Shown in pieces: positions 4,022 to 56,851 of a stretch of 64,000 nt of DNA. The notes beneath the pieces are model-generated. The model did no database searches. It worked only from the letters and a program-made list of their open reading frames with translations, and was not told the DNA's origin. Each line of letters opens with the position of its first letter. Position 1 is the stretch's first letter. The stretch is from Patescibacteria group bacterium. Lineage in GTDB: Bacteria; Patescibacteriota; UBA1384; CAJBMM01. The position numbers and the translations under genes were made by a program. The stretch covers positions 20,315-84,314 of the forward strand of contig JBAZWC010000002.1 in assembly GCA_041660565.1 (NCBI GenBank), read 5' to 3'.

Positions 4022-4128
4022 TAAGGGCGTTTAGGGGGCTTGGGGGAGTTAGGGTCATTGGGAGAGCCAAATGGTTCCCCAAAACCCCTAACCACCCTAA
4101 AATCCCTAACGCCTTTCGAATTTTTGAC

Positions 4129-4168
4129 AAAAGAAAACGCCCCGTGCCATACAGGCCACGGGAGCGTT
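4129..4168 (-). terminator. rho-independent terminator (GC hairpin CCCGTGGCC..GGCACGGGG + TTTTCTTT on minus strand), copy 1 of a duplicated 39-nt unit
   Basis: A near-identical 39-nt sequence recurs at 4494-4532. It lies directly downstream of minus-strand gene 4181..4408. Confidence 0.55.
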
Positions 4169-4180
4169 AGTGCGGGCGGG

Positions 4181-4408
4181 CTACTGCTCTGCCAGATACG
4201 CGGTGTATTCCCGCGCGTCCAGATCATAGGTCAGGATGCACCTGTCTCGGTTACCCGGAGTCAGGCTGCAATGTCGGGTAGTAGCGCCGATGGCGCTTGC
4301 GGGCGGTTCCACGCCGATGGGGGCGGGGACAACTGGTCGTCCTTGGAACGCACTCTTGACGCCCGTACCATCTGGGTGCCAAAGAATGTAGGCGGGTATT
4401 GCTTGCAT
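4181..4408 (-). CDS. small hypothetical protein, paralog C of a tandem triplet (GC-rich islet)
   Basis: RBS GGGAGAAGG precedes the ATG. It shares the motif block PGNRDRCILTYDLDAREYTAY with EDCVLVKMGTVYFAYP and EDCILVPGPSGKTYFAFP in the two upstream genes. Confidence 0.5.
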   Translation of the reverse strand: MQAIPAYILWHPDGTGVKSAFQGRPVVPAPIGVEPPASAIGATTRHCSLTPGNRDRCILTYDLDAREYTAYLAEQ

Positions 4409-4493
4409 AACCTTCTCCCGTGATATGAATCATCAGTGCAAGTTGGCCTTACGCCTTTAGTGTCTGTTTTTATATTCGCTTTGTCAAATATGT

Positions 4494-4532
4494 AAAGAAA
4501 ACGCCCCGTGCCATACTGGCCACGGGGACGTT
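4494..4532 (-). terminator. rho-independent terminator, copy 2 of the duplicated 39-nt unit
   Basis: Same hairpin and T-tract, downstream of minus-strand gene 4547..4879. Confidence 0.55.
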
Positions 4533-4546
4533 GATAAAAGCGAAGC

Positions 4547-4879
4547 CTAACCTTTTGCCGGGTAGGCGAAGTAGACAGTTCCCATCTTTACCAGCACGCA
4601 GTCTTCCTCCTGCCCGACTGTGGGGTATTGTGTTCTGGTTTTGGCAGATAATCCCGTCGGGGGTTTGTCTCCAAGGCGGGACGGGAAAACCGCCGCCCGC
4701 AGGTAAAAGGCCTTGACAGGATCTGTACCGGGGTTGTGACGGAGATGGCGACGCGGGTTATCGCCCCACGTTACCGTAAAACGAACGACCAGTTGTTGAT
4801 CTTGCACCACCACGTCAGTCTCCTTTGTGGTTGGTGAAACGCCCCCGGCCGGGTGGCCGAAGGGCGTCGTCAAAGGCAT
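4547..4879 (-). CDS. small hypothetical protein, paralog B of the tandem triplet
   Basis: Its start abuts the stop of 4881..5282 (translational coupling). Conserved blocks TVTWGDNPRRH, AVFPSRLGDKPP and EDCVLVKMGTVYFAYP align with paralogs A and C. Confidence 0.5.
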   Translation of the reverse strand: MPLTTPFGHPAGGVSPTTKETDVVVQDQQLVVRFTVTWGDNPRRHLRHNPGTDPVKAFYLRAAVFPSRLGDKPPTGLSAKTRTQYPTVGQEEDCVLVKMGTVYFAYPAKG

Positions 4880-4880
4880 G

Positions 4881-5282
4881 CTACTTGGTTGGGTTCAACA
4901 CGATGGTGATTCGTCCGTCGGGGGACTTGGTGACCCCACCGAGCCGATATCCATCAGCGAGAGTCAGCACATTACCGTCGATATCGTATGTTGTGCATAC
5001 TATAACCTCGACGACATCACCCTGATCCATGACTGGGAAAGCGAAGTACGTCTTCCCGGATGGACCAGGGACAAGAATGCAATCCTCCGAATCCCCAACA
5101 ACAGGATACCTCTTTCGCGCCACCGCCCCGGAATCCTCTGGGGGGATATATCCGAGGTCCGACGGGAAAACGATCACGTTGCCGTGAGCTGCAACGCAGT
5201 TGCTGGAGCCAGGTTTCCTGTTCCAGCGCTCATTCTTCTGCCACGTGATAACGACACGAACACGGTCAGGTACTTCCGGCAT
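4881..5282 (-). CDS. small hypothetical protein, paralog A (longest, with a ~40 aa C-terminal extension)
   Basis: RBS AAAGGA lies 7 nt upstream of the ATG. It is GC-rich. The opposite-strand ORF 4827..5357 is judged an antisense artefact. Confidence 0.5.
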   Translation of the reverse strand: MPEVPDRVRVVITWQKNERWNRKPGSSNCVAAHGNVIVFPSDLGYIPPEDSGAVARKRYPVVGDSEDCILVPGPSGKTYFAFPVMDQGDVVEVIVCTTYDIDGNVLTLADGYRLGGVTKSPDGRITIVLNPTK

Positions 5283-5481
5283 TGCAATGTCCTTTCATTA
5301 ACTAAAATGAGAGGCTGCCACAGTATCAGTATTAGCATATTGTCACATATAGAATAGAATGTCAATATGTTATTCGTTCGGTTTAGAGGTTATACTACAA
5401 TGTGAAGTCGGATTAGGTTCGCCACAAAGCGGGCGGACATGCTAGTCCGCCCCTACACCACAGGGAAGAACAAGGAGGAAA

Positions 5482-6009: not shown

Positions 6010-6153
6010 GCACGAAATACGAAACAAATTCAAAATTAAAAAAGTTTAAAAATTTCAAATTTCAAATTTCAAATTTTCATTATCGCCAAACAAAACGTAT
6101 TGGATTCTGCCATCCACAATGACACCGCACACTTTTTAATCTAGAATAAAGTT

Positions 6154-7122: not shown

Positions 7123-7141
7123 GTAAATCTCACGAGCATCG

Positions 7142-7215
7142 TAGGGGCAATACCTCGTTTCACTTCGGAAACCAGAGGTTAACACGAATTGCCCGCGGGC
7201 GGTTCATGAACCGCC
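7142..7215. mobile_element. MITE-like element, family C (termini GTAGGGGC...GCCCCTAC), containing a 60-nt core shared with 30146-30205
   Basis: The core gtaggggc[a/g]atacctcgtttcacttcggaaaccagaggttaacacgaat[t/c]gccc is repeated at 30146. Its right end is a GGGCGGttcatgaaCCGCCC hairpin. Confidence 0.5.
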
Positions 7216-8660: not shown

Positions 8661-8758
8661 AGCTCTACAATATCAGAAAACGGATGACGGAGGACAGAAG
8701 ACGGAGGACGGATCGTCGTTATTGTCAAACCCCCAACCCGTGAATCCGGAAAATAATA

Positions 8759-8882
8759 TGTCATTTCGACCCTAGGAGATTGTCAAATCGACTATGTTGG
8801 AGAAATCTGAGAAAGAATCCCTTCCAGTCTTTTCTGGAGATTTCTCCACCCTCGACTTGAATGTCGAGGAGTCGAAATGACA
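8759..8882. mobile_element. MITE-like element, family A copy 1 (TIR TGTCATTTCGAC / GTCGAAATGACA; inner IR GGAGAAATCT / AGATTTCTCC); flanked by outer IR GTGAATCCGGAAA / TTTCCGGATTCAC
   Basis: Perfect 12-bp terminal inverted repeats seen in sequence. The same architecture recurs at least 8 more times in the window. Confidence 0.7.
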
Positions 8883-9009
8883 AACCGTAGATATTTTTAT
8901 TTAATTTCCGGATTCACGTCCCAACACCCCTAATCCCCCTAAACTCCCTTACACCCCTACACAAAACCATCTTTTTCTGCCATAATTGAAGCTGACAAAC
9001 GGAGGAAAA

Positions 9010-9486
9010 ATGCCTAAAAAAGTTAAACCCGAGATTAATGAATACGAACAAAAAGCGAACGAATATTTGGCCGGATGGCAACGCGCCCAGGCCGATTTAG
9101 TAAATATGCGAAATCGCCACGAAGAAGATCGCAAATCGCTACTATCCTACGCTCACAGCGACATTGTAGAACAAATCTTGCCGGTTTTTGACAATTTTAT
9201 GCGCGCCGCAGAGCACACTCCAACCGACGAATCAGCTAATTGGACCAATTGGGCTAACGGTATTAAGGCAATTGAAAAACAATTTGAAACTGTCTTAAAC
9301 CAATGCGGTGTAAACCAAATTAAAGTTGCGATTGGCGACACATTTGATCCAAATTTTCACGAAGCGTTGATGACCGAAAAATCAGAGCTGGAACCGGATA
9401 AAATCCTTGCCATAATTGAACCGGGTTATATGTTGAATGATAAAGTACTCAGACCGGTTAAGGTTAAGGTGAGTAGTGGGGAGTAG
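9010..9486 (+). CDS. grpE: nucleotide exchange factor GrpE
   Basis: GrpE-like coiled-coil plus C-terminal beta domain. It lies immediately upstream of dnaK. RBS AACGGAGGAAAAATG. Confidence 0.75.
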   Translation: MPKKVKPEINEYEQKANEYLAGWQRAQADLVNMRNRHEEDRKSLLSYAHSDIVEQILPVFDNFMRAAEHTPTDESANWTNWANGIKAIEKQFETVLNQCGVNQIKVAIGDTFDPNFHEALMTEKSELEPDKILAIIEPGYMLNDKVLRPVKVKVSSGE

Positions 9487-9708: not shown

Positions 9709-11601
9709 ATGGGTAAAATAATCGGTATCGATTTAGGTACTACCAACTCGGTTGGCGCCGTAATGGAAGCTGGCAGCGCCAAAGTAATCCCCACCGCCGA
9801 GGGCGGTAACATTGTGCCATCTATTGTTGCTATCAACAAAAATAATGAGCGACTGGTAGGGCAAATTGCTAAGCGCCAAGCGGTCACTAATCCCGCCAAC
9901 ACTATCTTTTCCATTAAACGTTTTATCGGACGCAAATTTGACGATAAAGACGTTCAAGACGATCTAAAACATATTCCTTATAAAGCGGTTAAAGCAGCCA
10001 ACGGCTCTGTTTCGGTGATGTTAAATGATAAAGAGTACACCCCGCAAGAAATTTCCTCGTTTATTTTAGCCAAAATTAAGCAAGATGCTGAAAGCTATTT
10101 GGGCGAACCGGTAACTGATGCGGTTATCACCGTGCCAGCTTATTTTGACGATGCCGAACGCCAAGCCACCAAAGACGCCGGCAAAATTGCCGGGCTGAAC
10201 GTGCAACGTATCATTAATGAACCAACTGCTGCCGCACTGGCTTACGGCTTGGAAAAACAGAAAAATGAAAAAGTGGCGGTTTTTGATTTAGGCGGTGGTA
10301 CGTTTGATATTACCGTGCTGGAACTATCCGCTGCCGATGGCGAATCAAGTTTTGAGGTAATTGCCACCAACGGTGATACGCATTTGGGTGGAGACGACTT
10401 TGACCAAAAATTGATGCAAGAATTACTTGAAATCTTTAAAAAGGATCAGGGAATTGATCTATCAAAAGACATCATGGCATTGCAACGTATTAAAGAAGCG
10501 GCCGAAAAAGCCAAAATTGAGCTTTCTAACACTTTGGAAACCGAAGTTAACTTACCGTTTATCACCGCAGACGCTAACGGGCCAAAACATTTGGTCACCA
10601 AAATTACTCGTGCGCGCTTGGAACAACTAACCGAAGATTTGGTTCAGCGCACCTTAGAGCCCTGCAAAAAAGCGCTAGCCGACTCAAAACTAAACCCATC
10701 CGATGTTAACGAAGTCATTTTAGTTGGTGGGCAAACCCGTATGCCACGAGTAATTGCGGCGGTCAAAGATTTCTTTGGCAAAGAACCAAACAAAAGCGTA
10801 AATCCGGATGAAGCAGTAGCAATTGGCGCCGCTATTCAAGGTGGAGTGTTGGGCGGCGATGTTAAAGACGTATTGCTGTTAGATGTTACCCCGCTGTCTT
10901 TGGGATTAGAAACTTTGGGTGGAGTAATGACCAGATTAATTGAGCGCAACACTACCATCCCGACATCAAAATCACAGGTGTTTTCTACTGCTAGCGATAA
11001 TCAACCGGCTGTGGAAATCCACGTCTTACAAGGTGAGCGCGATATGGCCGCGGACAACAAAACCTTAGGCCAGTTTGTACTGGATGGCATCCCACCAGCC
11101 CCCAGAGGCGTGCCACAGGTTGAAGTTACGTTTGACATAGATGCTAATGGTATTGTTCACGTTTCAGCCAAAGACAAGGCCACCGGTAAAGAACAAAAAA
11201 TCACCATCACTTCTTCTTCCGGATTATCCGACGAAGAAATTAGTAAGATGCAAAAAGACGCCGAAGCACACGCGGACGAAGATAAGAAGAAACGCGAACT
11301 TGTGGAAAGCAAGAATATCGCCGATAATATGATATATACGGCCGAAAAAACATTGCGCGATTTAGGCGAAAAAGCCGATCCGGAATTAAAACGAGCGGTT
11401 GAAGACGCGGTGCTGGCAGTCAAAAACACCCTAACATCTAACGATGCAGCGCAAATTGCCAAAGCAACCGAAGAGTTAAGTAATCACCTATCCAAACTGG
11501 GACAAGCGGCTTATCAAGAACCAGAAAAATCTGAAACAAAAACCGACGAGGCGGGGGAGAAGCCAAAGGATGACAAAGAGGGGCAGGATCAATCTAAATA
11601 G
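9709..11601 (+). CDS. dnaK: molecular chaperone DnaK (Hsp70)
   Basis: [18 protein letters not shown] and the rest of the Hsp70 sequence throughout. RBS AGGAGG. Confidence 0.97.
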
Positions 11602-11619: not shown

Positions 11620-12315
11620 ATGAATAAACGCTTACTGTTCGCTGTGGTTGGTATTGTAGTTGTACTTGGTGCAATCGCAGTAGTGTTGATGGTGTTTGCA
11701 AACAAAAAAACTGGAACCACCACCCCAACCTCTTCGCCTAGTGCCGTATCCAGCACTTCCCCATCTGCTTCCTCCTCGGCTTCGGCATCCACAGATTCAA
11801 TTCTTTCCGCCGATACCAAATTAGCCACCGAGAACAGCATTAACCGTTTTGCTACCGCCAAAAGTCGAATTAGCCAATGGCCAATGTGGAAAAGCAACGC
11901 CACGTTTAGCGGGTTATTTATCTCGCTTAGCGCAACTCTAAAATTAGACAGCGCCAATGAAGTGTATGTTTTTGACTCAACCGATGACAACGCTAATCAC
12001 TACACTATTAGTATTTCGCAAAGTACCGGCAGTAGCTTAAGAGCAATCATCCCCAAATCCGATTATCAAGGCTCTTTGTTGGCTATCGACACCGCCTATT
12101 GGAAATCCAGCTATGTTGATGCGGTGCAAATTGCAGATCAGAATGGGGGCAGTCAATTTTCATCATCAAATAAAGTGACCGGGGTAGATGTAAATTTACA
12201 AAGATCTACACCGAATAATTATTTATATTGGATTGTTACCTACAAAACTGCGGATGCCGGAACTAGTTTGGTGGTAAAAATCGACGCAAACTCGAAAACG
12301 GTGGTTAAGGAATAA
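11620..12315 (+). CDS. hypothetical membrane-anchored protein (N-terminal TM helix, Ser/Thr-rich linker, ~130 aa C-terminal domain) inserted between dnaK and the dnaJ-like gene
   Basis: N-terminal hydrophobic helix LLFAVVGIVVVLGAIAVVLMV and a low-complexity TTTPTSSPSAVSSTSPSASSSASAST segment. Confidence 0.5.
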   Translation: MNKRLLFAVVGIVVVLGAIAVVLMVFANKKTGTTTPTSSPSAVSSTSPSASSSASASTDSILSADTKLATENSINRFATAKSRISQWPMWKSNATFSGLFISLSATLKLDSANEVYVFDSTDDNANHYTISISQSTGSSLRAIIPKSDYQGSLLAIDTAYWKSSYVDAVQIADQNGGSQFSSSNKVTGVDVNLQRSTPNNYLYWIVTYKTADAGTSLVVKIDANSKTVVKE

Positions 12316-12326
12316 CGAGCATTTTC

Positions 12327-12587
12327 TGTCATTTCGACCCGAGGAGGTTGTCAAATCGACTACGTTGGAGAAATCTCAAGAAAGAATCCTGTCAATAATT
12401 TTAAATTTTAAAGGCTAAATTTTAAATGAATAAGTACCGAATGATTAAATTTTAAATGGTTCCTTATTTAGTCATTTAAAAATTGGCAACCATTCATTTG
12501 AAATTAAAAATTGAAAATTAAAAATTCTAATTGTTTTAGATTTCTCCAACGTAGTCACGCTGCGGCGCTCCTCGGGTCGAGATGACA
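12327..12587. mobile_element. MITE-like element, family A copy 3, carrying a nested ~140-bp AT-rich element (family B) at about 12395-12537
   Basis: Family A termini are intact. The inserted block aattttaaattttaaaggctaaattttaaatgaataagtaccgaatgattaaattttaaatggttcc... is about 95% identical to the block at 20899-21035. Confidence 0.7.
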
Positions 12588-12667
12588 GGTTATGGAAGTT
12601 ATACGATCTTGAAAATATCCAATAAAAATTGTAGAATATCGGTATTACAACCAAGAAACGATTAATT

Positions 12668-13279
12668 GTGGCTAAAAATTATTATGAAATTTTAGGCGTT
12701 TCAAAATCTGCCTCGGCGGATGAAATTAAGCGTGCATATCGTAAATTAGCCCACGAGCATCACCCAGACAAGGGCGGTGGCGCCGCAGCCGAAGCCAAAT
12801 TCAAAGAAATTAACGAAGCTTATCAAGTTTTATCTAACCCGCAAAAACGCCAATCTTACGACACCTTTGGCACCGCCGATGGTGCGCAATTTGGTGGAGC
12901 AAACCCCGGCGGCTTCGGTGGATTTGGCAATATGGGCGGATTCGATTTTGGATCTGGCGGAGTACACTTTGGTGGCGGTTTGGGAGATCTGTTTGAGGGG
13001 ATTTTTGGTCAAACCATGGCGCAAGTCCAAGTTGAAGTTGAAATATCAATTACCCAAGCGGTTTTAGGCGATACCTTGCATTTACAAGTTGAGAACAAAA
13101 AAGTTGACCTAGCAATACCGGCTGGCACACAGGACGGCCATTCATTCCGTCTACGTGGGCAGGGGCGGGCGTTTCGTGGCGGGGTTGGTGATTTGATTGT
13201 CTCGGTTCGCATACGCGTGCCAAGACATCTTAGTCGCGAACAACGCGAACTATACGAAAAACTAAAAAATTTGGAATAA
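12668..13279 (+). CDS. J-domain co-chaperone (DnaJ-like; J domain + Gly/Phe-rich region + C-terminal domain, no CxxCxGxG zinc finger)
   Basis: GTG start. YYEILGV...HPDK J-domain signature and a [17 protein letters not shown] region. The absence of a zinc-finger motif was checked in the translation. Confidence 0.75.
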
Positions 13280-13597: not shown

Positions 13598-13680
13598 TTG
13601 TCATTCCGGATTTAATCCGGAATCTATATAAAAAAAATTTCCATCATTTCAAATTTCAAATTTCAAATTGTAAATTATCT
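13598..13680. repeat. CCGGAATGACA-family hairpin (TGTCATTCCGGATTTAATCCGGAAT) followed by a (TTTCAAA)n heptamer tract
   Basis: Short palindromic element related to the family A TIR. The tttcaaatttcaaatttcaaattg tract recurs at about 6040, 20250, 50075 and 54265. Confidence 0.5.
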
Positions 13681-13782
13681 ACATTTAGTCAAAACCGTGC
13701 TTAAAAGAGAACCGTCCCCTATTTCTGCCTTTCCATCCTCCATTCTCTATCCTCTATCCTCCAAATGTGCTATAATAATAAT

Positions 13783-15150
13783 ATGAAATTAAAACTGGTA
13801 TATGCCCCAAGCCCAATCTTAAATCGCAAAGCCATCAGTGTGCCAAAAATCACGCCAGATTTGGTGAAGCTAGCCAACAATATGCTGGAAACAATGGTAG
13901 ATGGCAATGGCATCGGCCTAGCCGCTCCCCAAGTTAATCAGAATGTTCGTTTGATCGTTGTGGGAAATTCACCCGAAAAAGAGGGTGAAGATTACATCCC
14001 AACCACCATTTTATTCAATCCTAAAATCACCAAATTCTCGTCGGAAAAAGAGTTCGCCACCGAAGGCTGCTTGTCTATTCCGGGAATTACCGGCGTGGTT
14101 GAACGATCAAAGTCGATTACGGTTGAATTTCTTGATGTTGATGGAAATAAGCAAACGCTAAACGCAAGCGACTTGTATGCGCGCGTAATTCAACACGAGG
14201 TTGACCACTTGGAAGGCGTACTGTTCACTGATCGTCTAAGACACTATTCGATCGTCTTTTACGGCACCTCCGATTTTGCCGTACCGGCGCTAGAAGAGTT
14301 GCTTCTGCACCCACAGTTTGAACTTAAAGCGATTGTAACCGAAACCGATAAACCGGCTGGCCGCGGACATCAGCTAACCGCGTCACCGGTGAAAAAATTC
14401 GCCCTTGATAATAAAATCAAAGTGCTGCAGCCAATGTCGCTTAATTGCCAACACAAAAACGCCACCAAAGCCCAGTCAGCCACAAATGCTTTTCAAGACT
14501 TAAGCAAAATTAAGCCTGATTTTCAGATTGTGGCCAGTTATGGAAAAATCATCCCGCAAGAATTTTTGGATTTAGCAAAACTGATCAACCTAAATATTCA
14601 CCCATCACTATTGCCAAAATATCGTGGCGCCAGCCCAATTCAATCTGCCATTTTGCACGGTGAAACTCAAACCGGCGTGGCAGTGATGGCAATGGCGGCG
14701 GAAATGGACGCCGGCCCGGTAGTAACAATGTATCGCCACAATATCGACCCGGACGAAAATGCAGATCAGTTATCAAAACGGTTGGCTGAGTCTGGCGCAG
14801 CGCAACTGATTATGACCTTAGAGGAAATGTTAAGCAATAAATCGTCACTGTATGAGCAAGACCACACCAAAGCCACTTTCACCAAAAAGTTTGAAAGCGT
14901 GGACGGATTAATTGATTGGACCAAATCTCCAATAGATTTGCATAACTTTGTCCGCGCGCTAACCTCTAAACCGGGCGCGTTCACCCAGATTGATGGCCAA
15001 AACGTCAAAATACTGAAAACCCATTTGACAGAGGGTAAATTGACCATTGATTTGGTGCAATTACCCGGTAAAAAACCATTTTCAATGTCGGATTTGAAAA
15101 ATGGATATCCAAAAATGTATCAAGAATTATTAAATCAATCCAATAAGTAA
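13783..15150 (+). CDS. def-fmt: fused peptide deformylase (N-terminal ~160 aa) - methionyl-tRNA formyltransferase (C-terminal ~295 aa)
   Basis: One uninterrupted ORF. Def motifs GIGLAAPQV, EGCLS and QHEVDHLEG are followed without a stop by Fmt motifs IVFYGTSDFAVPALEEL and HPSLLPKYRGASPIQ. TATAAT lies 7 nt before the ATG at 13783 (leaderless?). Confidence 0.75.
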   Translation: MKLKLVYAPSPILNRKAISVPKITPDLVKLANNMLETMVDGNGIGLAAPQVNQNVRLIVVGNSPEKEGEDYIPTTILFNPKITKFSSEKEFATEGCLSIPGITGVVERSKSITVEFLDVDGNKQTLNASDLYARVIQHEVDHLEGVLFTDRLRHYSIVFYGTSDFAVPALEELLLHPQFELKAIVTETDKPAGRGHQLTASPVKKFALDNKIKVLQPMSLNCQHKNATKAQSATNAFQDLSKIKPDFQIVASYGKIIPQEFLDLAKLINLNIHPSLLPKYRGASPIQSAILHGETQTGVAVMAMAAEMDAGPVVTMYRHNIDPDENADQLSKRLAESGAAQLIMTLEEMLSNKSSLYEQDHTKATFTKKFESVDGLIDWTKSPIDLHNFVRALTSKPGAFTQIDGQNVKILKTHLTEGKLTIDLVQLPGKKPFSMSDLKNGYPKMYQELLNQSNK

Positions 15151-16809: not shown

Positions 16810-16925
16810 TGTCATTTCGACTCGGGGAGTGCGTCGGCACGACCTCGGTGGAGAAATCTAAATAAAAATCCTTTCCAGTTCTTGACGGGATCTCTCGCCC
16901 CGCTTCGCGGTGGTGTCGAGATGAC
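16810..16925. mobile_element. MITE-like element, family A copy 4
   Basis: TGTCATTTCGACTCGG...GTCGAGATGACA with inner GGTGGAGAAATCT. Confidence 0.65.
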
Positions 16926-16965
16926 ATATTAAAAAAAAATCAGGGTAGCAAGTCTTACAGACCTA

Positions 16966-17661
16966 CTACCCGGGTTTGACCAGTAACTCCCGCCATGGAG
17001 ACTGCGTTAGATCCAGCGGTCCCAGATCCTCGTGGACCATTTCCCAGTGCACTCTGGTTAGCCCCTCCGCAATCGGGTTACCCTCTAGCACGGCGATCAT
17101 CATGGCAACGCATGCGGTCATTTTGGTTTCCATCGCACCGAGCCAGTTGCCAACGTCCACCAGCCAGAAGTACCGATACAGGTTACCATAATCGGTATCT
17201 GGGCTGCTGTAGGCATAATCGGCATAGTGAGACGGCTGTTGCCCATTAATGTCAAGCGCGAAACACAGCGCCATATTGTACATCGAATGAGCAGCGACAT
17301 GAACGATCGACGCGTTGAAGTCGTAATCCACAAACCGCTTTGGCAACAGCGATGCCACGGTTAACCGATTTGGGTAGCCTAACCCTCGTCGCACTTCATG
17401 ACAAGTACCCTGATGGTCCAAATAGACGTCGACGAATTGAGCGATAGCGCTGATTCGTCGTTGCACTTCTGGCCAATCATGAACCCGCTGCACGTGACGC
17501 GATATTTCCAGTTCTCCAGTGAGCACCGGATTCGACAGTAACGGGATGCGCGGACGGAACTTGGCTGCTACTTCGGGGTAGTATTGCAATATCCCCGCTC
17601 TTTCCGCGCCCAGCTGTAAAGCTTGTGCGCCTTTTGAGCGCACTGATGTCCATGCGCTCAT
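16966..17661 (-). CDS. hypothetical protein (231 aa) in a GC-rich islet; no family recognised
   Basis: RBS AAAGGAGAAAC upstream of the ATG. GC-rich composition contrasts with its neighbours. Confidence 0.5.
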   Translation of the reverse strand: MSAWTSVRSKGAQALQLGAERAGILQYYPEVAAKFRPRIPLLSNPVLTGELEISRHVQRVHDWPEVQRRISAIAQFVDVYLDHQGTCHEVRRGLGYPNRLTVASLLPKRFVDYDFNASIVHVAAHSMYNMALCFALDINGQQPSHYADYAYSSPDTDYGNLYRYFWLVDVGNWLGAMETKMTACVAMMIAVLEGNPIAEGLTRVHWEMVHEDLGPLDLTQSPWRELLVKPG

Positions 17662-17742
17662 TTCTGAGTTTCTCCTTTAGAGAAAGCAGAGGCTCCCGGA
17701 ACGTTATACAACGCGGGAGCCTTGAGTGTGCAGGAGCGGCGA

Positions 17743-17952
17743 TCAGCGGGGAATACGGCGCGGGCCATGGGGCATGTTCGGCCTCTTGCCGGCGGTGAAG
17801 CCGGCGGCGGAATCCGTCGTGACCGGCACCCCGCTGTGGGTGCCTCCGAGCCCCCACGGCTTCCGTTCCGCGATCTCGGCGTCGCGAAGCGCGACGTACT
17901 CGTCTCGGGATATCTGACCGTTGTCCAGCTTCTCACGAAGATTGCTAGCCAT
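17743..17952 (-). CDS. small SHOCT-like domain protein (69 aa; start at the internal ATG with RBS GGAAGGAG)
   Basis: MASNLREKLDNGQISRDEYVALRDAEIAERK resembles the short C-terminal SHOCT motif. It is followed by a GGCTCCCG...CGGGAGCC hairpin. The longer 110-aa ORF version is disfavoured. Confidence 0.4.
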   Translation of the reverse strand: MASNLREKLDNGQISRDEYVALRDAEIAERKPWGLGGTHSGVPVTTDSAAGFTAGKRPNMPHGPRRIPR

Positions 17953-18126
17953 CTCGATCCGACTCCTTCCAGAGAATGTGTGCCGCGATTGCCGGATGCG
18001 GCACAAATGATGGGTTCGCCCGGAGCCTGTCTGACGAAGCTCCAGCGTATGCATATATTGTATCAAAAATTTCAATACTTGTCAATAGCTGAAAAAGATG
18101 TTATGGTAGAAGTCACAATATAGTTC

Positions 18127-18192
18127 TCGGACACCAAGTGTCCTCGAACAAGAAATGTTACTTTCTCGTTCGAGCGTAAGCGAGAACTACCG
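18127..18192 (+). promoter_or_regulatory. uvrB 5' region with nested palindromes: GGACAC-caa-GTGTCC and CTCGAACaAGAAA-tgtta-cTTTCTcGTTCGAG
   Basis: 13-bp arms with 2 mismatches. The arm ends CGAAC/GTTCG echo Gram-positive LexA half-sites. A CGAACAAG octamer also lies upstream of dinB at about 36868-36890. Confidence 0.35.
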
Positions 18193-18211
18193 CACAAGGA
18201 TAAAAGGAAAT

Positions 18212-20167
18212 ATGACCAAGTTTGAATTACATGCCCCATATTCGCCATCGGGCGACCAACCAAAAGCGATTAATAATCTAACCGCCAACTTAAGTGCGGG
18301 CAAAAAACATCAAACCTTACTAGGCGTTACCGGATCGGGTAAAACTTACACCATTGCCAACATCATCAATAACGTCCAAAAACCCACGCTGGTAATCGCC
18401 CACAACAAAACGCTGGCGGCGCAATTAGCCAGTGAATTTCGCACCTTTTTCCCAAACAACGCGGTGCATTATTTTGTCTCGTTTTACGATTACTATCAGC
18501 CCGAAGCCTACATCCCCACGTCCGACACTTACATTGAAAAAGATTCGACGATAAACGACGAGATCGATCGCTTGCGCAACGCCGCCACTCAAGCACTAAT
18601 GACGCGTAAAGACGTTATTATTGTGGCGTCGGTGTCGTGTATTTACGGTTTGGGATCACCTGACATTTACAAAACCGCGGCGATTCCACTGAGCGTTGGT
18701 GAGCAGATTGGGCAGCAAAACCTGATCCGTCGGCTGAACGATATTTTATACGAACGCAACGATTATGATTTGAAACGGGGCACTTTTCGGGTAAAAGGTG
18801 ATGTGGTGGAACTATTTCCCGCGTATGACGATAAAACCATCCGTATTACTTTTGACAACAATCAAATTGAATCAATTTACACCGTAAATCAGATTGATGG
18901 CAATAAGTTAGAACAATTCAGTCAGATTGATATCTTTCCGGCGCGTCATTTCTTAACCGAATCTCGCGATCTCACCCCAACTTTAAAACAGATAGAATCA
19001 GATATGGAACGTGAAGTAAAACTATTCGAGAAGGAAGGACGATTAATAGAGGCGCAGCGTCTACGAGAACGCACCACTTTTGATTTAGAACTAATTCGCG
19101 AAACCGGCATCTGCAACGGCATCGAAAACTATTCACGCTATTTTGATATGCGCCCGGCCGGCTCCCCTCCATCGGTGTTGCTGGATTATTTCCCGTCGGA
19201 TTATCTGTTAGTCATAGACGAATCGCATATGACCGTGCCGCAAATCCGCGGGATGTACAATGGAGACAAAGCGCGAAAAGACACTTTGATTCATTATGGA
19301 TTTAGACTAAAAGCCGCACGAGATAATCGACCATTAAAGTTCGATGAGTTCTCAGACCGCATTAATCAGGTTATCTACACCTCCGCCACCCCAAACGATT
19401 ACGAAAAAGAGTTGTCGGGATCAGATGGAATTGTGGAACAGATTATTCGCCCTACCGGCTTGGTTGACCCGGTAATCGAAGTCAAGCCAACCACCAACCA
19501 GGTTGACGATTTAATGCATCAAATTAATTTACGCGTCAAAAACGGGCAACGGGTTTTGGTAACCACTTTGACAAAACGACTAGCCGAGGATTTAACCGAA
19601 TATCTGTCTGAAACCGGCATCAAAGTGCAATACCTGCATTCAGATGTGGCCACGTTGGATCGAACTGAAATTTTAGCAAATCTGCGTAACGGCAAGTTTG
19701 ACGTTTTGATCGGTATTAACTTGCTTCGGGAAGGGTTAGATTTACCGGAGGTAGGGTTGGTGGCAATTCTGGACGCAGACCGAGAAGGTTTCTTACGTAA
19801 CGCTACCAGTTTTATTCAAACCATCGGACGAGCGGCGCGAAATGTGAATGGCCTGGTGATTATGTATGCCGACACCGTGACAAAATCGATGAAAACCGCC
19901 ATTGACGAGACTAATCGTCGGCGTCAAATTCAGATGGATTACAACCTAAAACACCATATTACGCCGCAATCAATCGCCAAATCACTTCATTCGGCTCTAG
20001 TTTTTGAAGAAAAAATTGAGGTAGATGAGATTCCGGAAAATCTACCAAAAGAAGAACGTGCTCGATTAATTAAATCTTACTTACAAAAGATGGAAAAAGC
20101 GGCCGGAAATTTGGAGTTCGAAAAAGCCGCTGATCTCCGCGATAAAATCGCACAACTACGAGGTTAA
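18212..20167 (+). CDS. uvrB: excinuclease ABC subunit B
   Basis: GVTGSGKT Walker A, helicase motifs, and a C-terminal UvrB/UvrC interaction helix (EFEKAADLRDKIAQL). RBS AAAGGAAAT before the ATG at 18212. Confidence 0.95.
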   Translation: MTKFELHAPYSPSGDQPKAINNLTANLSAGKKHQTLLGVTGSGKTYTIANIINNVQKPTLVIAHNKTLAAQLASEFRTFFPNNAVHYFVSFYDYYQPEAYIPTSDTYIEKDSTINDEIDRLRNAATQALMTRKDVIIVASVSCIYGLGSPDIYKTAAIPLSVGEQIGQQNLIRRLNDILYERNDYDLKRGTFRVKGDVVELFPAYDDKTIRITFDNNQIESIYTVNQIDGNKLEQFSQIDIFPARHFLTESRDLTPTLKQIESDMEREVKLFEKEGRLIEAQRLRERTTFDLELIRETGICNGIENYSRYFDMRPAGSPPSVLLDYFPSDYLLVIDESHMTVPQIRGMYNGDKARKDTLIHYGFRLKAARDNRPLKFDEFSDRINQVIYTSATPNDYEKELSGSDGIVEQIIRPTGLVDPVIEVKPTTNQVDDLMHQINLRVKNGQRVLVTTLTKRLAEDLTEYLSETGIKVQYLHSDVATLDRTEILANLRNGKFDVLIGINLLREGLDLPEVGLVAILDADREGFLRNATSFIQTIGRAARNVNGLVIMYADTVTKSMKTAIDETNRRRQIQMDYNLKHHITPQSIAKSLHSALVFEEKIEVDEIPENLPKEERARLIKSYLQKMEKAAGNLEFEKAADLRDKIAQLRG

Positions 20168-20177
20168 TATTTTCACG

Positions 20178-20339
20178 CGTCATTTCGACTCGGGGAGAGT
20201 GTCGACTCGACCACGGTGGAGAAATCTGAGAAAGAATCCGTTCCATCATTAAAAATTTCAAATTTCAAATTTCAAATTCTCGCTTAAAATTCCTCCACCC
20301 TCGAGACAATCCGCCAGCTGACGGACGTCGGGGATGACA
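20178..20339. mobile_element. MITE-like element, family A copy 5 (with an internal TTTCAAA heptamer tract)
   Basis: CGTCATTTCGACTCGG...GTCGGGGATGACA. Confidence 0.65.
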
Positions 20340-20386
20340 TAGAGTGTTGAATTGCCCCAAACTATATTTAATGTTAATCTACATTT

Positions 20387-20833
20387 ATGAATAAATTGAC
20401 CATAAACATCGCCAAAATTAACCCAAATGCCATCATACCGGAATACAAAACCGACGGTGCGGCTTGTTTTGACATTTCAATTTGCGAAGATGTCGCCGTT
20501 GAACCAAACCAAACCGTTCTACTCCCCACCGGCTTAGTAATTGAAACACCACCAGATTATGCTCTGTTTATTGCCCCTAGATCTAGCATGGCCAAAACCG
20601 GCCTTATTATGCCCCACTCTTTTGGAATTTTAGACCCGGATTACTGCGGCCCAGAGGACGAGATGAAAATTTTAGTCAAAAATATCACCGATCAAACCAT
20701 TTCTGTTACAAAAGGGCAAAGATTGGCACAAGGGTATTTTCTACCTATTCCCAAAACTGAGTGGAATATTATTGATAAATCTAAGCTAAAGCAATCTAGT
20801 CGAGGTGGGTTCGGCTCTACCGGATCTAAATAA
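20387..20833 (+). CDS. dut: dUTP diphosphatase
   Basis: Motifs RSSMAKTGL, GILDPDYCGP and SRGGFGSTG are the dUTPase signatures. Confidence 0.85.
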   Translation: MNKLTINIAKINPNAIIPEYKTDGAACFDISICEDVAVEPNQTVLLPTGLVIETPPDYALFIAPRSSMAKTGLIMPHSFGILDPDYCGPEDEMKILVKNITDQTISVTKGQRLAQGYFLPIPKTEWNIIDKSKLKQSSRGGFGSTGSK

Positions 20834-20851
20834 ATCACCTCTCGCTCATAT

Positions 20852-21095
20852 TGTTTCGACTCGGAAAGCGCAACAACAGTGGTGGAATTTGTATAAACAA
20901 TTTTAAATTTTAAAGGCTAAATTTTAAATGAATAAGTACCGAATGATTAAATTTTAAATGGTTCTTTATTTAGTCATTTAAAAATTGGCTACCTTTCATT
21001 TAAAATTAAAAATTAAAAATTTATTATTCTCGTTATATAGATTTCTCCAACATGGGCGGACATATGAGTCCGCCCCTACATGGTCGAGATGACAA
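20852..21095. mobile_element. MITE-like element, family A copy 6 with a nested family B element (about 20899-21035) and a family C fragment (GGGCGGACATATGAGTCCGCCCCTAC) at its right end
   Basis: Second occurrence of the ~140-bp AT-rich family B block. A mosaic of three repeat families. Confidence 0.65.
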
Positions 21096-21107
21096 CTGCA
21101 CGATGCG

Positions 21108-21677
21108 TTATATAGTCTGAGTGCTGGTTCTGCGGTGACTAACAATCGATTTAACCAATACCGGGGCGTAAATTGCCACTGCAAAATACACCGGTACGAT
21201 AATTAAGTTACCAAGCAACATATTACGATAAAACGGAATACCCATCACATAGCACTGCATTAATCCGCTCCAAGTTTTGGGGTAAAAAATGCCATCACCC
21301 ATCAACCATACCCCAAAGTTGGTATAAAAGAAGAAGAAAAATGACGATAACACAGCCGCAATAGCCGAAACGCCAACGGTTTTGATATTTTTTTCATACT
21401 TTTTCATACTTACACTAAGTAAGCCAATCAACCCAAAAGCGCTCCAAGTAAAAATAAAGATATTGGTATTGCCTATTAGTTTGTCGGTGATAACCATTAC
21501 TGCCAGCGGCACAACAATGCGATAGTATTTGGGCAAAAATGCGGCGGCTAGTAACGTACCGGCGGTAATGAACTCCAGATTTGGCATATACATATATTGA
21601 TGGTTTATCAATCGCCAGATTATTGCGATACCAATCAGTAGCGATGCGATACAGATGTGTTTTAGATGCTCTTTCAA
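21108..21677 (-). CDS. polytopic membrane protein (putative vitamin/B12-type ECF substrate-capture component; 5-6 TM)
   Basis: 189 aa hydrophobic protein. TTG start preceded by TAAGGAGGAAAG. It is co-oriented with the DUF4430, cobO and nrdJ genes. Confidence 0.4.
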   Translation of the reverse strand: MKEHLKHICIASLLIGIAIIWRLINHQYMYMPNLEFITAGTLLAAAFLPKYYRIVVPLAVMVITDKLIGNTNIFIFTWSAFGLIGLLSVSMKKYEKNIKTVGVSAIAAVLSSFFFFFYTNFGVWLMGDGIFYPKTWSGLMQCYVMGIPFYRNMLLGNLIIVPVYFAVAIYAPVLVKSIVSHRRTSTQTI

Positions 21678-22658: not shown

Positions 22659-25298
22659 TTAACATTTAGAGAAACCACAATTTTCACATTTTTGGCATCC
22701 TTCAATGAATCGAAATGTCGCCATGCCACAATCCGGGCAGATATCGGCGTTTCCTTTTCTCTCTGGCTGGTCCATTTGCACCGTTTCGGTTTTTTCGGGC
22801 ATTACTTCGATACCTTGCTTGTCAGATTCATGCTCTTTTAGCACCTTTGACACAGCATCGGCTAATGAACGAATGCGCATCGCCCCAAAACCGGTTGACC
22901 CTGCGCCACCAATACCGGTTAGCTGTTCAACCACATTTTGAGCAATACGCTCAGAAGTGTAGTGGGTAGGGATACGGAAGGTAAGGGAAATTAATCGTCC
23001 AATTGCTTCTGCGTCGGCAGTGATATCTGAACCGGCATGCCCCACGTTAATAAATACCTCAAAAATATTTTGATTCTCGTCTTCGTTAATAGAAATAAAC
23101 GCTTTACCCACCGGCGTATTTACTTTATAGGTGCGACCGGTTAAAACGTGAGGACGCGGGCGTAGGGTAATCGGTTGGCTATCGGCTAAATCGATAACCG
23201 AGGCACTGGTCTTGCCCGCCATTTTATCGTAATAAGAATTCTCTTTTTTAGTCTCTAAAATCTGCTTTTCTCGGCTACCATCGCGATAAATTGTGATACC
23301 TTTGCAATTTGTCTCGTAAGCCATCCAATACGCCGTGCGAACATCTGCTACCGTAGCGCTGTTTGAAAAGTTAATAGTCTTGGAGATGGCATTGTCAGTA
23401 TATTTTTGCAACGCGGCCTGCATCTTTAGATGCCACTCTGGCGCAATATCCCCAGCCACCACAAACACCTTCTTTAATTCTGCCGGAATTTGCTCCAGCG
23501 CTTGAATTGAGCCGTTATTACTCTGAATTTTCTCTAAAATGTCATCGTTGTGTAATCCATGGTCCTTAAGTGCCTGCAAAAAGTGCGGACTGGTCTGAAA
23601 AATTCGTTTTCCTTCGATGGTATTTTTGGCGTACGCAAGGGCGAACAACGGTTCGCAACCAGACGAACAATCCGCCAACATAGAAATTGTACCGGTAGGG
23701 GCAATGGTGGTTCTGGCGCCGTTACGCGGTTTGATTTCGCCTTTTTTATTGTAAATTGAATCCGGATACAATGGGAACGGCCCGCGCTCTTTTGCTAACA
23801 GTACCGAAGCGTTATCGGCCTCTTTTTGCATAAATTTCATTAGCTTTTCGCCAACTTTTAACCCCTCATCGGTATTATATCCAACACCTAACAGCAACAA
23901 CGCATCGGCAAAACCCATTATTCCAAGCCCAATACGGCGAATGCTGCGAGTCATTTTTCGCACTTCATCTATTGGATATTCATTCATATCTAACACATCG
24001 TCCAAAAATCGGGTGGCGGTATGGATTGCCTCTCTCATTCCGTCCCAATCAAAATCTTTTCCATTCACATATTTTGCCACGTTAATACTACCCAACGTAC
24101 AAGCGTCATAAGGTAACAGAGGTTGTTCTCCGCACGGATTTGTAGCTTCAATTTGGCCGAGTTTCGGTGTTGGATTTGCACGAGATTCGTTAATACGATC
24201 CAAAAAGATCATGCCCGGATCGCCGTAGTTCCACGCTAATCGGGTAATTAAATCGAACACTTTTTTGGCATTAAGATGACCGGCGATGGTTTTGTCATGC
24301 GGATTAACTAAATCATAACCATAACCGGGTCGGCTTTCGTTGCACCACTCTCTCAGTCGCTCAACCACTTTGTCCAACAATACCGTTTTAAGATCAATAT
24401 CTCGGGTTTGGTGCGCGGTTCTGGCTTCTTCAATAATCTGATCATAATCGATATCTTTTTCGTATGTTGCCGGCAAACCCTCGGCATCAATTTTAACTTG
24501 ATTAAAGAACTGTTCGGTTACCGTAACCGAGATATTAAAGTTGGTCAGCGAAAACTCATCCACTTTATAAATGGAGAACAGTAAGATATCTGGGTGATTG
24601 TAATTCAAAATACCCATATTGGCGCCACGGCGCACCCCACCTTGACGAACCGACGAAGCGATATCGTTATACATCTGCATAAACGAGATGGGGCCGGTGG
24701 AATGACCCTTGGATGATTTTATCACCGTGCCTTTTGGACGCAGGCGTGAAAACGAAAAACCGGTGCCACCGCCAGATTTGTGAATTTTGGCCATGTCGGT
24801 AGCGGTTTTCAAAATACTGGTTAAATTATCTTCTATTGGCAACACGAAACAGGCTGAAAGTTGCTGTTCCGGTTTGCCCGCATTTAACATCGTTGGAGTG
24901 TTCGGCATAAACTGCTGACATGCCATCATTGTATAATATTTTCTAGCGGTATCTAAATGCGATTTTTCCGGATTTTCTCCAAATTGGCGCTCGGCAGTGG
25001 CTACATTATAAGCAACCCGCCAAAACATATCCCGAGCGGACTCTTGTGGATTTCCCTGCTCGTCACGAACCGCATAACGAGTCTTACCAATATACCACGC
25101 GTTATCACTTAAACTAGGCTCAGGTAGGTCAGCTGGAGCTTTGGGGATGTCTTTACCAATTTGGTACAACTGCTCAACCGATGACGGCGCAGTAACGATG
25201 TCGTCCTTAAACAGTTCGGTGGGTTGTTCTTGATTTGTGGGCATATCGCGCCTCCTTTGTTTTACTGTTTTGTTGCCATTTCGAGGTATTCGCATCAT
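22659..25298 (-). CDS. nrdJ: adenosylcobalamin-dependent ribonucleotide reductase (class II, NrdJ) with a C-terminal CxxC zinc ribbon
   Basis: 879 aa. Active-site NPCGEQPL and the motif HKSGGGTGFSFSRLRPKG. C-terminal CPDCG...CQKCENCG. Confidence 0.85.
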   Translation of the reverse strand: MMRIPRNGNKTVKQRRRDMPTNQEQPTELFKDDIVTAPSSVEQLYQIGKDIPKAPADLPEPSLSDNAWYIGKTRYAVRDEQGNPQESARDMFWRVAYNVATAERQFGENPEKSHLDTARKYYTMMACQQFMPNTPTMLNAGKPEQQLSACFVLPIEDNLTSILKTATDMAKIHKSGGGTGFSFSRLRPKGTVIKSSKGHSTGPISFMQMYNDIASSVRQGGVRRGANMGILNYNHPDILLFSIYKVDEFSLTNFNISVTVTEQFFNQVKIDAEGLPATYEKDIDYDQIIEEARTAHQTRDIDLKTVLLDKVVERLREWCNESRPGYGYDLVNPHDKTIAGHLNAKKVFDLITRLAWNYGDPGMIFLDRINESRANPTPKLGQIEATNPCGEQPLLPYDACTLGSINVAKYVNGKDFDWDGMREAIHTATRFLDDVLDMNEYPIDEVRKMTRSIRRIGLGIMGFADALLLLGVGYNTDEGLKVGEKLMKFMQKEADNASVLLAKERGPFPLYPDSIYNKKGEIKPRNGARTTIAPTGTISMLADCSSGCEPLFALAYAKNTIEGKRIFQTSPHFLQALKDHGLHNDDILEKIQSNNGSIQALEQIPAELKKVFVVAGDIAPEWHLKMQAALQKYTDNAISKTINFSNSATVADVRTAYWMAYETNCKGITIYRDGSREKQILETKKENSYYDKMAGKTSASVIDLADSQPITLRPRPHVLTGRTYKVNTPVGKAFISINEDENQNIFEVFINVGHAGSDITADAEAIGRLISLTFRIPTHYTSERIAQNVVEQLTGIGGAGSTGFGAMRIRSLADAVSKVLKEHESDKQGIEVMPEKTETVQMDQPERKGNADICPDCGMATFRFIEGCQKCENCGFSKC

Positions 25299-25300
25299 TT

Positions 25301-25426
25301 TGTCATTTCGACCCTATGAGAGTGTCAACTCGAATATGTTGGAGAAATCTGAGAAAGAATCCGTTTTCCAATTCTCTTTTGAGATTTCTCCACCCTCGAG
25401 ACAATGCTCGAGGAGTCGAAATGACA
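25301..25426. mobile_element. MITE-like element, family A copy 7
   Basis: TGTCATTTCGACCCTATG...GAGTCGAAATGACA. Near-identical inner repeats to copy 1. Confidence 0.7.
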
Positions 25427-25949
25427 TTGGAGATTAGCGTAAAAAGAAACCGTCTCGCATGGCTCGTCAACTTCGATTTTGCAAATGCTTCGCGTTAGGA
25501 AAAAAAGAGACCATTTCGCTCCGCTCAATCGGTCTCGATTTTCTTAATACTACCGTATTAAGAAAAATAAAAAACCGACCATCGTCCCTCGATTTGCCGG
25601 TTTAATACCGCAAGCCATCAGTGTTGTCAAAAAAATCGCTGTCAAAAGCAATTACTGACATGGTCAGATTGCTGCTAACTTAGCAACACTTTTTATTTGA
25701 GGGGCGTTTCTATCATAGCATAGATAATATTGGCATTGCCAATGGCCAATATTTTAAGCACCAAATCACAAACCCCAATTTTTAAACGAGTAATTATCTG
25801 AAATTTTAAAAATTATTAATTGAGATTTATGATTTTTCATCCCCCTGTGCAAAACTAGAAACAAAAAACGTTGATAAATGCAAATTCAACCATATCCACT
25901 ATATCCCACGGACTTTTTGCGTTATCATATAAATAGGAAAAGGAGGAGA

Positions 25950-38746: not shown

Positions 38747-38790
38747 GACCCGTCGCGACGATTGCGGCGGGTCTGATTCTTTTTTACATA
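38747..38790 (+). terminator. rho-independent terminator
   Basis: GC-rich hairpin followed by TGATTCTTTTTT. Confidence 0.6.
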
Positions 38791-38827
38791 GATTCCGGAT
38801 CTAGTCCGGAATGACAGCTAGTAATAT

Positions 38828-39539: not shown

Positions 39540-39627
39540 GTAGGGGCGGGTCTCGCCCCGCCCGCGGGCGGAACGCTGAGCGTCCCATTGCCCCGCTCAG
39601 TGTGGCGGACATGTTAGTCCGCCCCTA
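39540..39627. mobile_element. MITE-like element, family C (GTAGGGGCGG ... GGCGGACATGTTAGTCCGCCCCTAC)
   Basis: 10-bp terminal inverted repeat GTAGGGGCGG / CCGCCCCTAC. The internal GC-clamp hairpin GGGCGGACATGTTAGTCCGCCC is also present as fragments at 5430-5450 and 21052-21075. Confidence 0.55.
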
Positions 39628-39670
39628 CGAAGCTCATTATGCAGGATTTTGTCCGAGATGACAGCACGGA

Positions 39671-43460: not shown

Positions 43461-43603
43461 ATCAGAAAATAGATGATCGATTTTTCGCGTTCGAACGGAG
43501 AGAGAACTAATCAGAACAACGCCGGAAAGTTCTCGTTTCACTCGAACAAGAATGTATAACCTGTCATTCCGGAAAAAATCTCTGAATCTATATAAAAAAA
43601 GAA

Positions 43604-43643
43604 GAAGCGCGGGTGGCCGGTTTGGCCCTCGCGCTCTTTTGAG
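43604..43643. terminator. bidirectional rho-independent terminator (GCGCGGGTGGCC-ggtttg-GGCCCTCGCGC with T-tracts on both strands)
   Basis: Seen in sequence. It separates the DUF2207 gene (+) from the paralog array (-). Confidence 0.55.
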
Positions 43644-43647
43644 TTGA

Positions 43648-43907
43648 TCACGCCCCATGACGATGACGCCGATAGTCGATGAGGCAAGGAATGAACCACA
43701 CAAGCGCCAACCAGCGACCCCTGTATGTCTTAGCCGCAAACATGTGGATCATGACGGATAGACAATAGGCCGCGCCCAGCATCACGATTCCGATCGAGAT
43801 CCAACCGCGAGACCAGAGCGCCCCCATATGATGCCATCCCCCGATTACCCACAGTATGATCGCGGCCATCACCGGCGCGATCCACGACTTCCAGCATGCG
43901 AGCATCC
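43648..43907 (-). CDS. small 2-TM membrane protein, paralog 3 of a tandem triplet (GC-rich islet)
   Basis: ATG at 43907 preceded by GGGAGG. Shares G(A/S)AYC...M...W(P/F) blocks with the two upstream genes. Confidence 0.5.
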
Positions 43908-44162: not shown

Positions 44163-44201
44163 TGCGTTTCCCTCCCGGGAGTCAAAACGGTAGTGGCCGT
44201 G

Positions 44202-46313: not shown

Positions 46314-46347
46314 CTTGGTTTTAAAATTGTAAATTTAAAATTGGCCA

Positions 46348-50165: not shown

Positions 50166-50180
50166 AGCCGCTGGAACTAA

Positions 50181-56845: not shown

Positions 56846-56851
56846 TAAGAA

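Follow-up and report, generated by a model that had tools for sequence, protein, structure and literature searches.

A nearly identical 91-nt AT-rich hairpin at the centres of two intergenic palindromes of a Patescibacteria genome

The genome was read through a 64-kb window of an uncultured Patescibacteria (CPR) MAG, and "the window" hereafter refers to that whole stretch. The window has a GC content of ~44% (43.7%) and carries housekeeping genes. The genes relevant to the present analysis are as follows.

8986-9486, grpE (Pfam/NCBIfam scan)
9709-11601, dnaK (Pfam/NCBIfam scan)
11620-12315, + strand, hypothetical gene with a 231-aa product, MFA6082296.1 (locus tag WC773_02715; contig of 374,447 bp)
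12668-13279, dnaJ, short
18155-20167, uvrB
20387-20833, dut
21108-21677, - strand, DUF6580 gene
22659-25298, - strand, nrdJ

An AT-rich block is present twice in the window, once in the spacer between the hypothetical gene and dnaJ in the dnaK operon and once downstream of dut, where the neighboring dut and DUF6580 genes are convergent. Both copies have the same (sense) orientation, each behind a + strand gene, and both sit centrally, between the two arms of a palindrome that we refer to as family A. Family A elements are inverted pairs of units with the layout TGTCATTTCGAC-(variable hairpin)-GGAGAAATCT-(loop)-AGATTTCTCC-(variable hairpin)-GTCGARATGACA. The two host elements (A3 and A6) and the block-free elements used for comparison are located as follows.

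12327..12396, + strand, left arm of host A3 (TGTCATTTCGAC...GGAGAAATCT) and left loop (CAAGAAAGAATCCTGTCAAT); pairs with the right arm
12525..12587, + strand, right loop of host A3 (TTCTAATTGTTTT) and right arm (AGATTTCTCCAAC...GGTCGAGATGACA)
20854..20898, + strand, decayed left arm of host A6 (TTTCGACTCGGAAAG...GGTGGAATTT); the arms are unpaired in the fold
21027..21094, + strand, right loop and right arm of host A6; the arm holds a small hairpin, GGCGGACATATGAGTCCGCCCCTAC, at 21055-21079
20179..20339, + strand, comparator A5, with (AAATTTC)3.7 at the same loop point (CCA / TTCT) and no core
25301..25426, + strand, comparator A7, with an empty loop, GAATCCGTTTTCCAA / TTCTCTTTTGAG; reference for placing the insertion point
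8759..8882, + strand, comparator A1, with an empty loop
9495-9619 and 16810-16926, further block-free family A copies
50022-50166, mosaic A-type copy, block-free

The first host (12327-12587) is intact, and the composite of arms and block folds as DNA into one 262-nt hairpin (-60.8 kcal/mol, z = -12.8). The second (about 20854-21094) has decayed, with the TGTCA terminus and the GAGAAAGAATCC loop segment lost from its left arm and the arms no longer pairing.

The first-pass annotation had reported a two-copy AT-rich block inside two family A elements, and the duplicated block is real and far beyond chance. In an ungapped comparison, 12397-12524 and 20899-21026 align over 128 nt without indels and with 8 mismatches (positions 67, 92, 96, 104, 117, 124, 126, and 127 of the block). 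A BLAST search of the window with copy 1 returned copy 2 at E = 1.9e-55, and a 28-mer from the block has exactly two exact matches in the window versus 0.00 expected. The identity is unevenly distributed along the block (Fisher p = 6e-4 with the split placed at position 75), with 90/91 identical nucleotides at positions 1 to 91 and 30/37 at positions 92 to 128. Aligned pairwise, the left borders of the two copies coincide to the base, and the upstream flanks match at 12/40 positions. The right border of the nearly invariant part, which we call the core, is the sharp fall in identity after position 91; beyond the 128-nt block (TTCT...AGATTTCTCCAAC), a rough reading of the aligned flanks gives ~75% identity. 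The block is discrete and nearly identical in hosts with diverged arms. The parts of the block are as follows.

12397..12487, + strand, core copy 1, 91 nt, 90/91 identical to copy 2 (covariance-model score, 109 bits)
20899..20989, + strand, core copy 2, which folds like copy 1 (covariance-model score, 107 bits)
12488..12524, + strand, AT heptamer tract (AAATTAA type) 3' of core copy 1 (TRF period, 7)
20990..21026, + strand, AT heptamer tract 3' of core copy 2 (ungapped comparison, TRF)

The two 37-nt tails formed by these tracts are 81% alike, and each is 66 to 84% identical to other AT heptamer tracts in the window; because they are no more alike than either is to those other tracts, they are probably host-loop sequence. 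We therefore take the unit specific to both loci to be the 91-nt core (12397-12487 and 20899-20989) and not the ~140-bp element initially proposed at 12395-12537 and 20899-21035. The left ends of those intervals were accurate to within a few bases, the right ends lay ~10 nt too far out, and the 3' third of the block appears to be host-loop sequence, an AT heptamer tract.

The source is a MAG, short-read assemblies break at repeats, and contigs of the Logan assembly of SRR18595301 end inside the block, so the duplication could in principle be an artefact in which a repeat was collapsed or chimerically joined. This independent assembly, however, reproduces the left junction of copy 1 (contig L001) together with the right arm and AT tail beside copy 2 (contig L129), the two copies differ by substitutions, and their flanks differ. 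Since the junctions are reproduced, the nested arrangement is not a product of the MAG assembly, and we regard such an artefact as scarcely credible.

The points at which the Logan contigs end are of separate interest. L001 (1901-1927; window 12397-12423) stops 27 nt into copy 1, and L129 (4380-4415; window 20992-21030), which approaches from the right, stops 3 nt before core copy 2, whereas 30 nt of shared sequence would be expected on each contig with k = 31 and only two copies. These breakpoints hint at further core copies, with other flanks, elsewhere in the genome.

Block-free family A loops read GAGAAAGAATCC-(N)-CCA / TTCTCTTTTG, and the A3 loop reads GAATCCTGTCAAT-(core)-(heptamer tract)-TTCTAATTG. 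Relative to the empty-loop comparators, the core is inserted between CCA/CAA and the heptamer tract plus TTCT, a position that corresponds to the tip of the palindrome and lies directly 5' of an AT heptamer tract in both hosts. The block does not belong to the family A consensus (the first-pass annotation had named membership in the consensus as counting against a nested insertion): it is absent from the other six A-type copies in the window (one of them the mosaic), being present in 2/8 A-type elements, and from ~140 A-type units of other phyla.

The hosts are nonetheless related on their right side, where A3 and A6 have in common a tail of equal length (37 nt), TTCT, CCAAC, AGATTTCTCCAAC, and GGTCGAGATGACA, and the core might therefore be an original component of a long-loop family A subfamily that spread as a composite while its arms diverged faster. 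The tail, TTCT, AGATTTCTCCAAC, and GGTCGAGATGACA speak for such a subfamily. A single age, however, cannot explain why the core is 99% identical and the arms, tail, and flanks around it are 30 to 81% identical, and the left arm of A3 is 92% identical to that of the block-free A1, the right arms of A3 and A1 being unrelated. The right arms of A3 and A6 differ in their inner hairpin, which in A6 is GGCGGACATATGAGTCCGCCCCTAC, a sequence that recurs at 5432 and 39604. An ancestral origin of this kind is very unlikely.

The combination of a 99% identical core, surroundings at 30 to 80%, and discrete borders leaves late copying after the hosts had diverged or very strong constraint acting on the core alone. 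Recent copying is favored because invariance is as complete in loops and bulges as in stems, because similar module turnover is seen in the window, and because the core bears no mark of a gene or signal. Under the reading that we prefer, with a rough probability of 0.55, the 91-nt AT-rich noncoding hairpin is a module of mosaic intergenic palindromes that was recently copied, as a discrete piece, from the center of one family A palindrome to the center of another. Most likely, then, the core is a small piece of repeat DNA recently copied between palindromes, an ordinary kind of event. Counting against copying are the number of copies, only two and both in related hosts, and the lack of a solo copy in the window; the core is thus at most a candidate for independent mobility.

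The composition of the core gives no indication of a gene. Its GC content is 19.8%, compared to 43.7% for the window, and in it a 17-nt 5' tail of AATTTTA heptamers precedes a 74-nt imperfect hairpin. All six frames contain stops, several in each, and no stop-free stretch exceeds 18 codons. The core is noncoding, as the first-pass annotation had stated. The RNA fold of a 149-nt stretch containing copy 1 is better on the + strand (-30.8 kcal/mol, z = -4.0) than on the - strand (-22.4 kcal/mol, z = -2.0); the gap between strands is smaller for copy 2 (z = -4.0 versus -3.5). A 13-nt motif, TAAATTTTAAATG, occurs twice in direct orientation in the core (TRF period, 15), with imperfect inverted versions in the core and tail.

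Recent copying and strong purifying selection on a functional element would leave the same identity profile, and the core could accordingly be a structured small RNA, an RNA-processing hairpin, or an AT-rich protein-binding platform held by selection. Consistent with this are the 99% identity beside flanks at ~80%, the better + strand fold (clearer in copy 1), the sense orientation of both copies behind a + strand gene, the repetition of TAAATTTTAAATG in direct and imperfect inverted form, and the precedent of the IHF-binding L linker of E. coli BIME-1 (PMC3333891). The suggestion that the block is a small RNA gene nevertheless found no backing. At the gathering threshold, the sole Rfam match in the whole window is a tRNA at 62330; a relaxed scan of 12200-12700 returned only generic long-hairpin (miRNA precursor) matches far below threshold; and 12200-12800 and 20100-21200 contain no intrinsic terminator (GC-rich stem plus T run). 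Promoter-like sites in or beside the block are limited to low-scoring AT-rich consensus matches (9/12), as expected in sequence this AT-rich. The invariance of unpaired positions fits recency better than constraint, no homolog was found in any collection searched, and relatives lack the core at the same locus. We consider selective maintenance an improbable explanation of the identity.

Two more specific candidates were set aside. The core is a poor candidate for a dnaJ promoter, dnaJ having a better promoter-like site of its own downstream of the element (TTGAAA-17-TAGAAT, 12609-12637), and copy 2 was rejected as a promoter because its convergent neighbors leave no gene to promote. The sequence TTTAAAAATTGG was considered as a recurrent site; its 6 matches, versus 2.45 expected, were equalled in 3/100 shuffles and are not convincing.

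The core was sought well beyond the two loci. A 20-mer from it has no match in a set comprising one genome per species of 185,579 species, none in viral contigs (a second core segment likewise), and two in JGI metagenomes, both chance matches in unrelated AT-rich DNA. The composite of family A and core has no blastn match in phage and plasmid collections. Short-word blastn against the window and 0.9 Mb of other loci recovered only the two copies, as did a covariance model of the core run on the window; the best other match in these sensitive searches (24 bits, E = 0.05) falls in a heptamer tract.

The closest relatives of the neighboring protein (MFA6082296.1) are 47 to 59% identical. Three of the relatives (L004, L006, and L007) retain the gene order grpE-dnaK-hypothetical gene-dnaJ, with spacers of 0 and 86 nt between the last two genes and, in one case, an extra gene there. 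Family A and the core are both absent from the dnaK-dnaJ locus of these three relatives, and the three family A elements of this operon region are therefore lineage-specific insertions. Relatives at this distance would date host and core jointly as lineage specific; they cannot separate the core from family A.

The block had also been proposed to be a second MITE, and in this case it would be a classical MITE with its own ends, a transposase encoded elsewhere in the genome, and a true preference for family A loops. It is small and noncoding, its borders are sharp, and its two near-identical copies occupy the same kind of site; palindromes of REP type are known targets of insertion sequences (PMC1525189; PMC3333891). 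If the 128-nt version is considered, its 34-nt ends form an imperfect inverted pair (79% complementary), the right end being generic AT heptamer sequence. Between the copies, however, this right "inverted repeat" shows no more similarity than generic AT tracts do, and inverted termini are missing from the 91-nt core. Comparison of the flanks, which had been put forward as a check for target site duplications, yielded none at either border definition: the core is flanked by CAAT / AACC in copy 1 and AAAC / TACC in copy 2, the right flank of the 128-nt block is TTCT in both copies, and no consistent direct repeat is present, low-complexity sequence weakening this comparison and any search for a target motif. 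Among the 58 ORFs of the window scanned against Pfam and NCBIfam, a set that excludes five at 57860-63901, none matched a transposase, RAYT, or integrase, and several small ORFs within GC-rich islands matched nothing. With only two copies in 64 kb and no solo copy, recent copying by other routes is more likely than a classical MITE that truly prefers this target, and we consider the latter doubtful.

The shared position had been read as site-specific insertion, for which there are two cases to go on. Given the right-side relationship of the hosts, the position is explained equally well by targeting and by recombination between homologous loops.

If the core was copied recently from palindrome to palindrome, as we favor, the receptive site would be the tip of a long palindrome, which is single stranded and prone to breakage when a hairpin or cruciform extrudes. 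Two routes can be envisaged. In the first, a trans-acting enzyme of the HUH/Y1 type would act on single-stranded hairpin DNA, as RAYT does at BIME linkers; this would fit, weakly, the absent target site duplication and the common orientation of the copies. The E. coli enzyme TnpA-REP cleaves and recombines at BIME linkers (PMC3333891). In the second, a break at the palindrome tip would be repaired, or replication would switch template, with another family A element as the template, which fits the right-side homology of A3 and A6. The module itself may be selfish or neutral, and its presence would, as a side effect, lengthen a stem-loop in each of two spacers, that of the dnaK operon and that downstream of dut. 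A bolder and rather unlikely proposal is that the core is a "parasite of a parasite," a minimal hairpin element that spreads solely through the single-stranded tips of extruded REP-like palindromes, leaves no target site duplication, and uses the hosts' own single-strand DNA machinery, or else that it is a protein-binding or RNA-processing module which the palindromes deliver into operon spacers such as that of dnaK-dnaJ.

By analogy, the system would work like the REP/BIME/REPIN repeats, with the core in place of a long conserved linker, and also like nested MITEs. The REP/BIME/REPIN repeats of Proteobacteria (PMC3333891, PMC3116915, PMC2817692) are likewise short intergenic palindromic units that occur singly, in tandem, or as inverted pairs with a variable linker; they form mosaic combinations, the doublets fold as long hairpins, and one linker type, the BIME-1 L linker, is long, conserved, and AT-rich like the core. 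RAYT cleaves and recombines at REP/BIME linkers in vitro (PMC3333891). Here, however, the "linker" is itself a 91-nt hairpin and is present in only 2/8 A-type elements; REP sequences are species specific, whereas many phyla carry the family A unit motif; and REP/REPIN repeats flank a gene for RAYT, a Y1 transposase, which is absent from the 58 scanned ORFs of the window. REP sequences are defined by a conserved GTAG tetranucleotide 5' of the palindrome (PMC3333891). Family A comprises imperfect palindromic units, single and in inverted doublets with a spacer, as REP sequences do, but its units start with TGTCAT instead of GTAG, and it is thus not REP by definition.

MITEs nested in other repeats, as reviewed in PMC3184786, resemble the core in being small, noncoding, hairpin-forming, intergenic, and near-identical between copies, a repeat inside a repeat. 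The core, at 91 nt (128 nt with its tail), is within the size of MITEs (<~600 bp); it differs in lacking a target site duplication, clear terminal inverted repeats, and a related IS, and in being known from two copies, whereas MITEs have many copies and a related autonomous IS, a comparison that extends over the 64-kb window. REP-targeting insertion sequences (IS1397/ISKpn1; IS110-family elements such as ISPpu9) also prefer palindromic intergenic repeats (PMC1525189, PMC12288879), but these are full-length elements of at least 1 kb that encode a transposase, and the core is 91 nt and encodes nothing. Elements derived from IS200/IS605, which use HUH Y1 enzymes (PMC6006769), are hairpin based and lack inverted terminal repeats and target site duplications, as the core does. 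A hairpin-tip target and a common orientation would be consistent with strand-specific insertion of this type into single-stranded DNA. IS200/IS605 elements, however, have a short conserved 5' target, whereas the 5' flanks of the only two core copies, a very small sample, are TCAAT and TAAAC, and they use TnpA, of which none was found among the 58 scanned ORFs. Insertion into palindromic repeats without a target site duplication is also a property of IS110-family elements, and IS1397 targets the REP loop.

The host units are more widespread than the core. At least 120 stretches in species-representative genomes contain the unit motif GTCATTTCGAC-N15-40-GGAGAAATCT, versus ~7 expected by chance in a rough calculation, and carriers among the matches listed belong to the Clostridia, Bacteroidota, Planctomycetota, Chloroflexota, Acidobacteriota, Spirochaetota, and several Patescibacteria. 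The motif is not specific to this lineage and is present in many bacterial phyla. The units begin with (T)GTCATTTCGAC. Outside this lineage they are found alone, in tandem arrays, or as inverted pairs whose loops span 10 to 430 nt, and the loop sometimes has other units nested in it. A text search of open-access papers found none containing the 11-mer GTCATTTCGAC or GTCGAAATGAC, and no name or description was found for a host unit type spanning many phyla.

Small recombining hairpin modules abound in the window. The element at 50022 combines a C-type TGTCATTCCCGCGAAGGCGGGAATC left unit with an A-type right arm around an (AATTTCA) tract. A GC-rich hairpin module, GGCGGACAT...CCCCTAC (GGCGGACATNNNAGTCCGCCCCTAC), is present three times (5432-5456, 21055-21079, and 39604-39628; 88 to 96% identical), once solo, upstream of ruvC, and twice within arms of TGTCAT-type elements, one of which is A6. 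Other module pairs in the window are 88 to 97% identical, and the 99% identity of the core therefore fits genome-wide repeat turnover.

By itself, the finding matters little. Patescibacteria genomes, which are small, are usually considered to contain little mobile DNA; the present case shows that the intergenic palindromes of one such genome are mosaics of small hairpin modules whose shuffling continues. If the full genome were to hold further core copies, placed in other hosts, the core would represent an unambiguous example of a tiny hairpin-tip specialist, and, if true, this would offer a handle on the processing of REP-like repeats in this lineage, for which, to our knowledge, no mobilizing enzyme has been described. 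The occurrence of the host unit motif (GTCATTTCGAC...GGAGAAATCT) in many phyla may prove a more useful by-product than the core.

Several further features of the window were noted. With the GGCGGACATNNNAGTCCGCCCCTAC module, nesting of a module inside another repeat is seen for a second time. Within single arms of related unit types in the window, ATTTC pairs with GAAAT, or ATTCCGG with CCGGAAT, which suggests that each unit is itself a hairpin. A second unit family reads TGTCATTCCGG-loop-CCGGAATC and then TATATAAAAAA, sometimes followed by CCATCATTTC(AAATTTC)n, with pairs up to 97% identical, and tandem heptamer repeats detected with TRF occupy many intergenic spacers. The heptamers are mostly AT-only ((AAATTTC)n, (AAAATTT)n, and (AATTTTT)n), with others, (ACGGAGG)4.7 and (ATCCTCT)3.9, also present, and they resemble the heptameric STRR repeats of cyanobacteria.

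13599-13676, 31724-31762, 35525-35606, 38776-38816, 43562-43594, 50022-50060, and 56812-56852, copies of the second unit family
821-896, 6026-6076, 8680-8712, 13646-13676, 13735-13761, and 20253-20278, tandem heptamer repeats
34520-34547, 46320-46342, 50069-50086, 54128-54159, and 54258-54288, tandem heptamer repeats, continued

A 69-nt repeat, 91% identical between 7131-7199 and 30137-30205, lies between convergent gene ends in both places and may be a shared terminator-type module. The family A copy at 25301 (25299-25430) starts 3 nt from the first ATG of the nrdJ ORF, and the NrdJ profile match begins at residue 72 of that ORF; either the true start of nrdJ lies further in or the family A copy is part of the nrdJ leader. 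One ORF (13765-15150) carries Pep_deformylase and Formyl_trans_N/C domains and represents a def-fmt fusion. Four stretches with a GC content of 49 to 56%, compared to ~44% for the window (4022-5481, 17662-18154, 43461-44609, and 57416-57859), hold internal repeats and small ORFs without a Pfam match, for example the following.

4547-4879, 4881-5282, 17477-17857, 43365-43739, and 57443-57745, all - strand, small ORFs without a Pfam match

These GC-rich stretches look like small foreign gene cassettes set between housekeeping genes.
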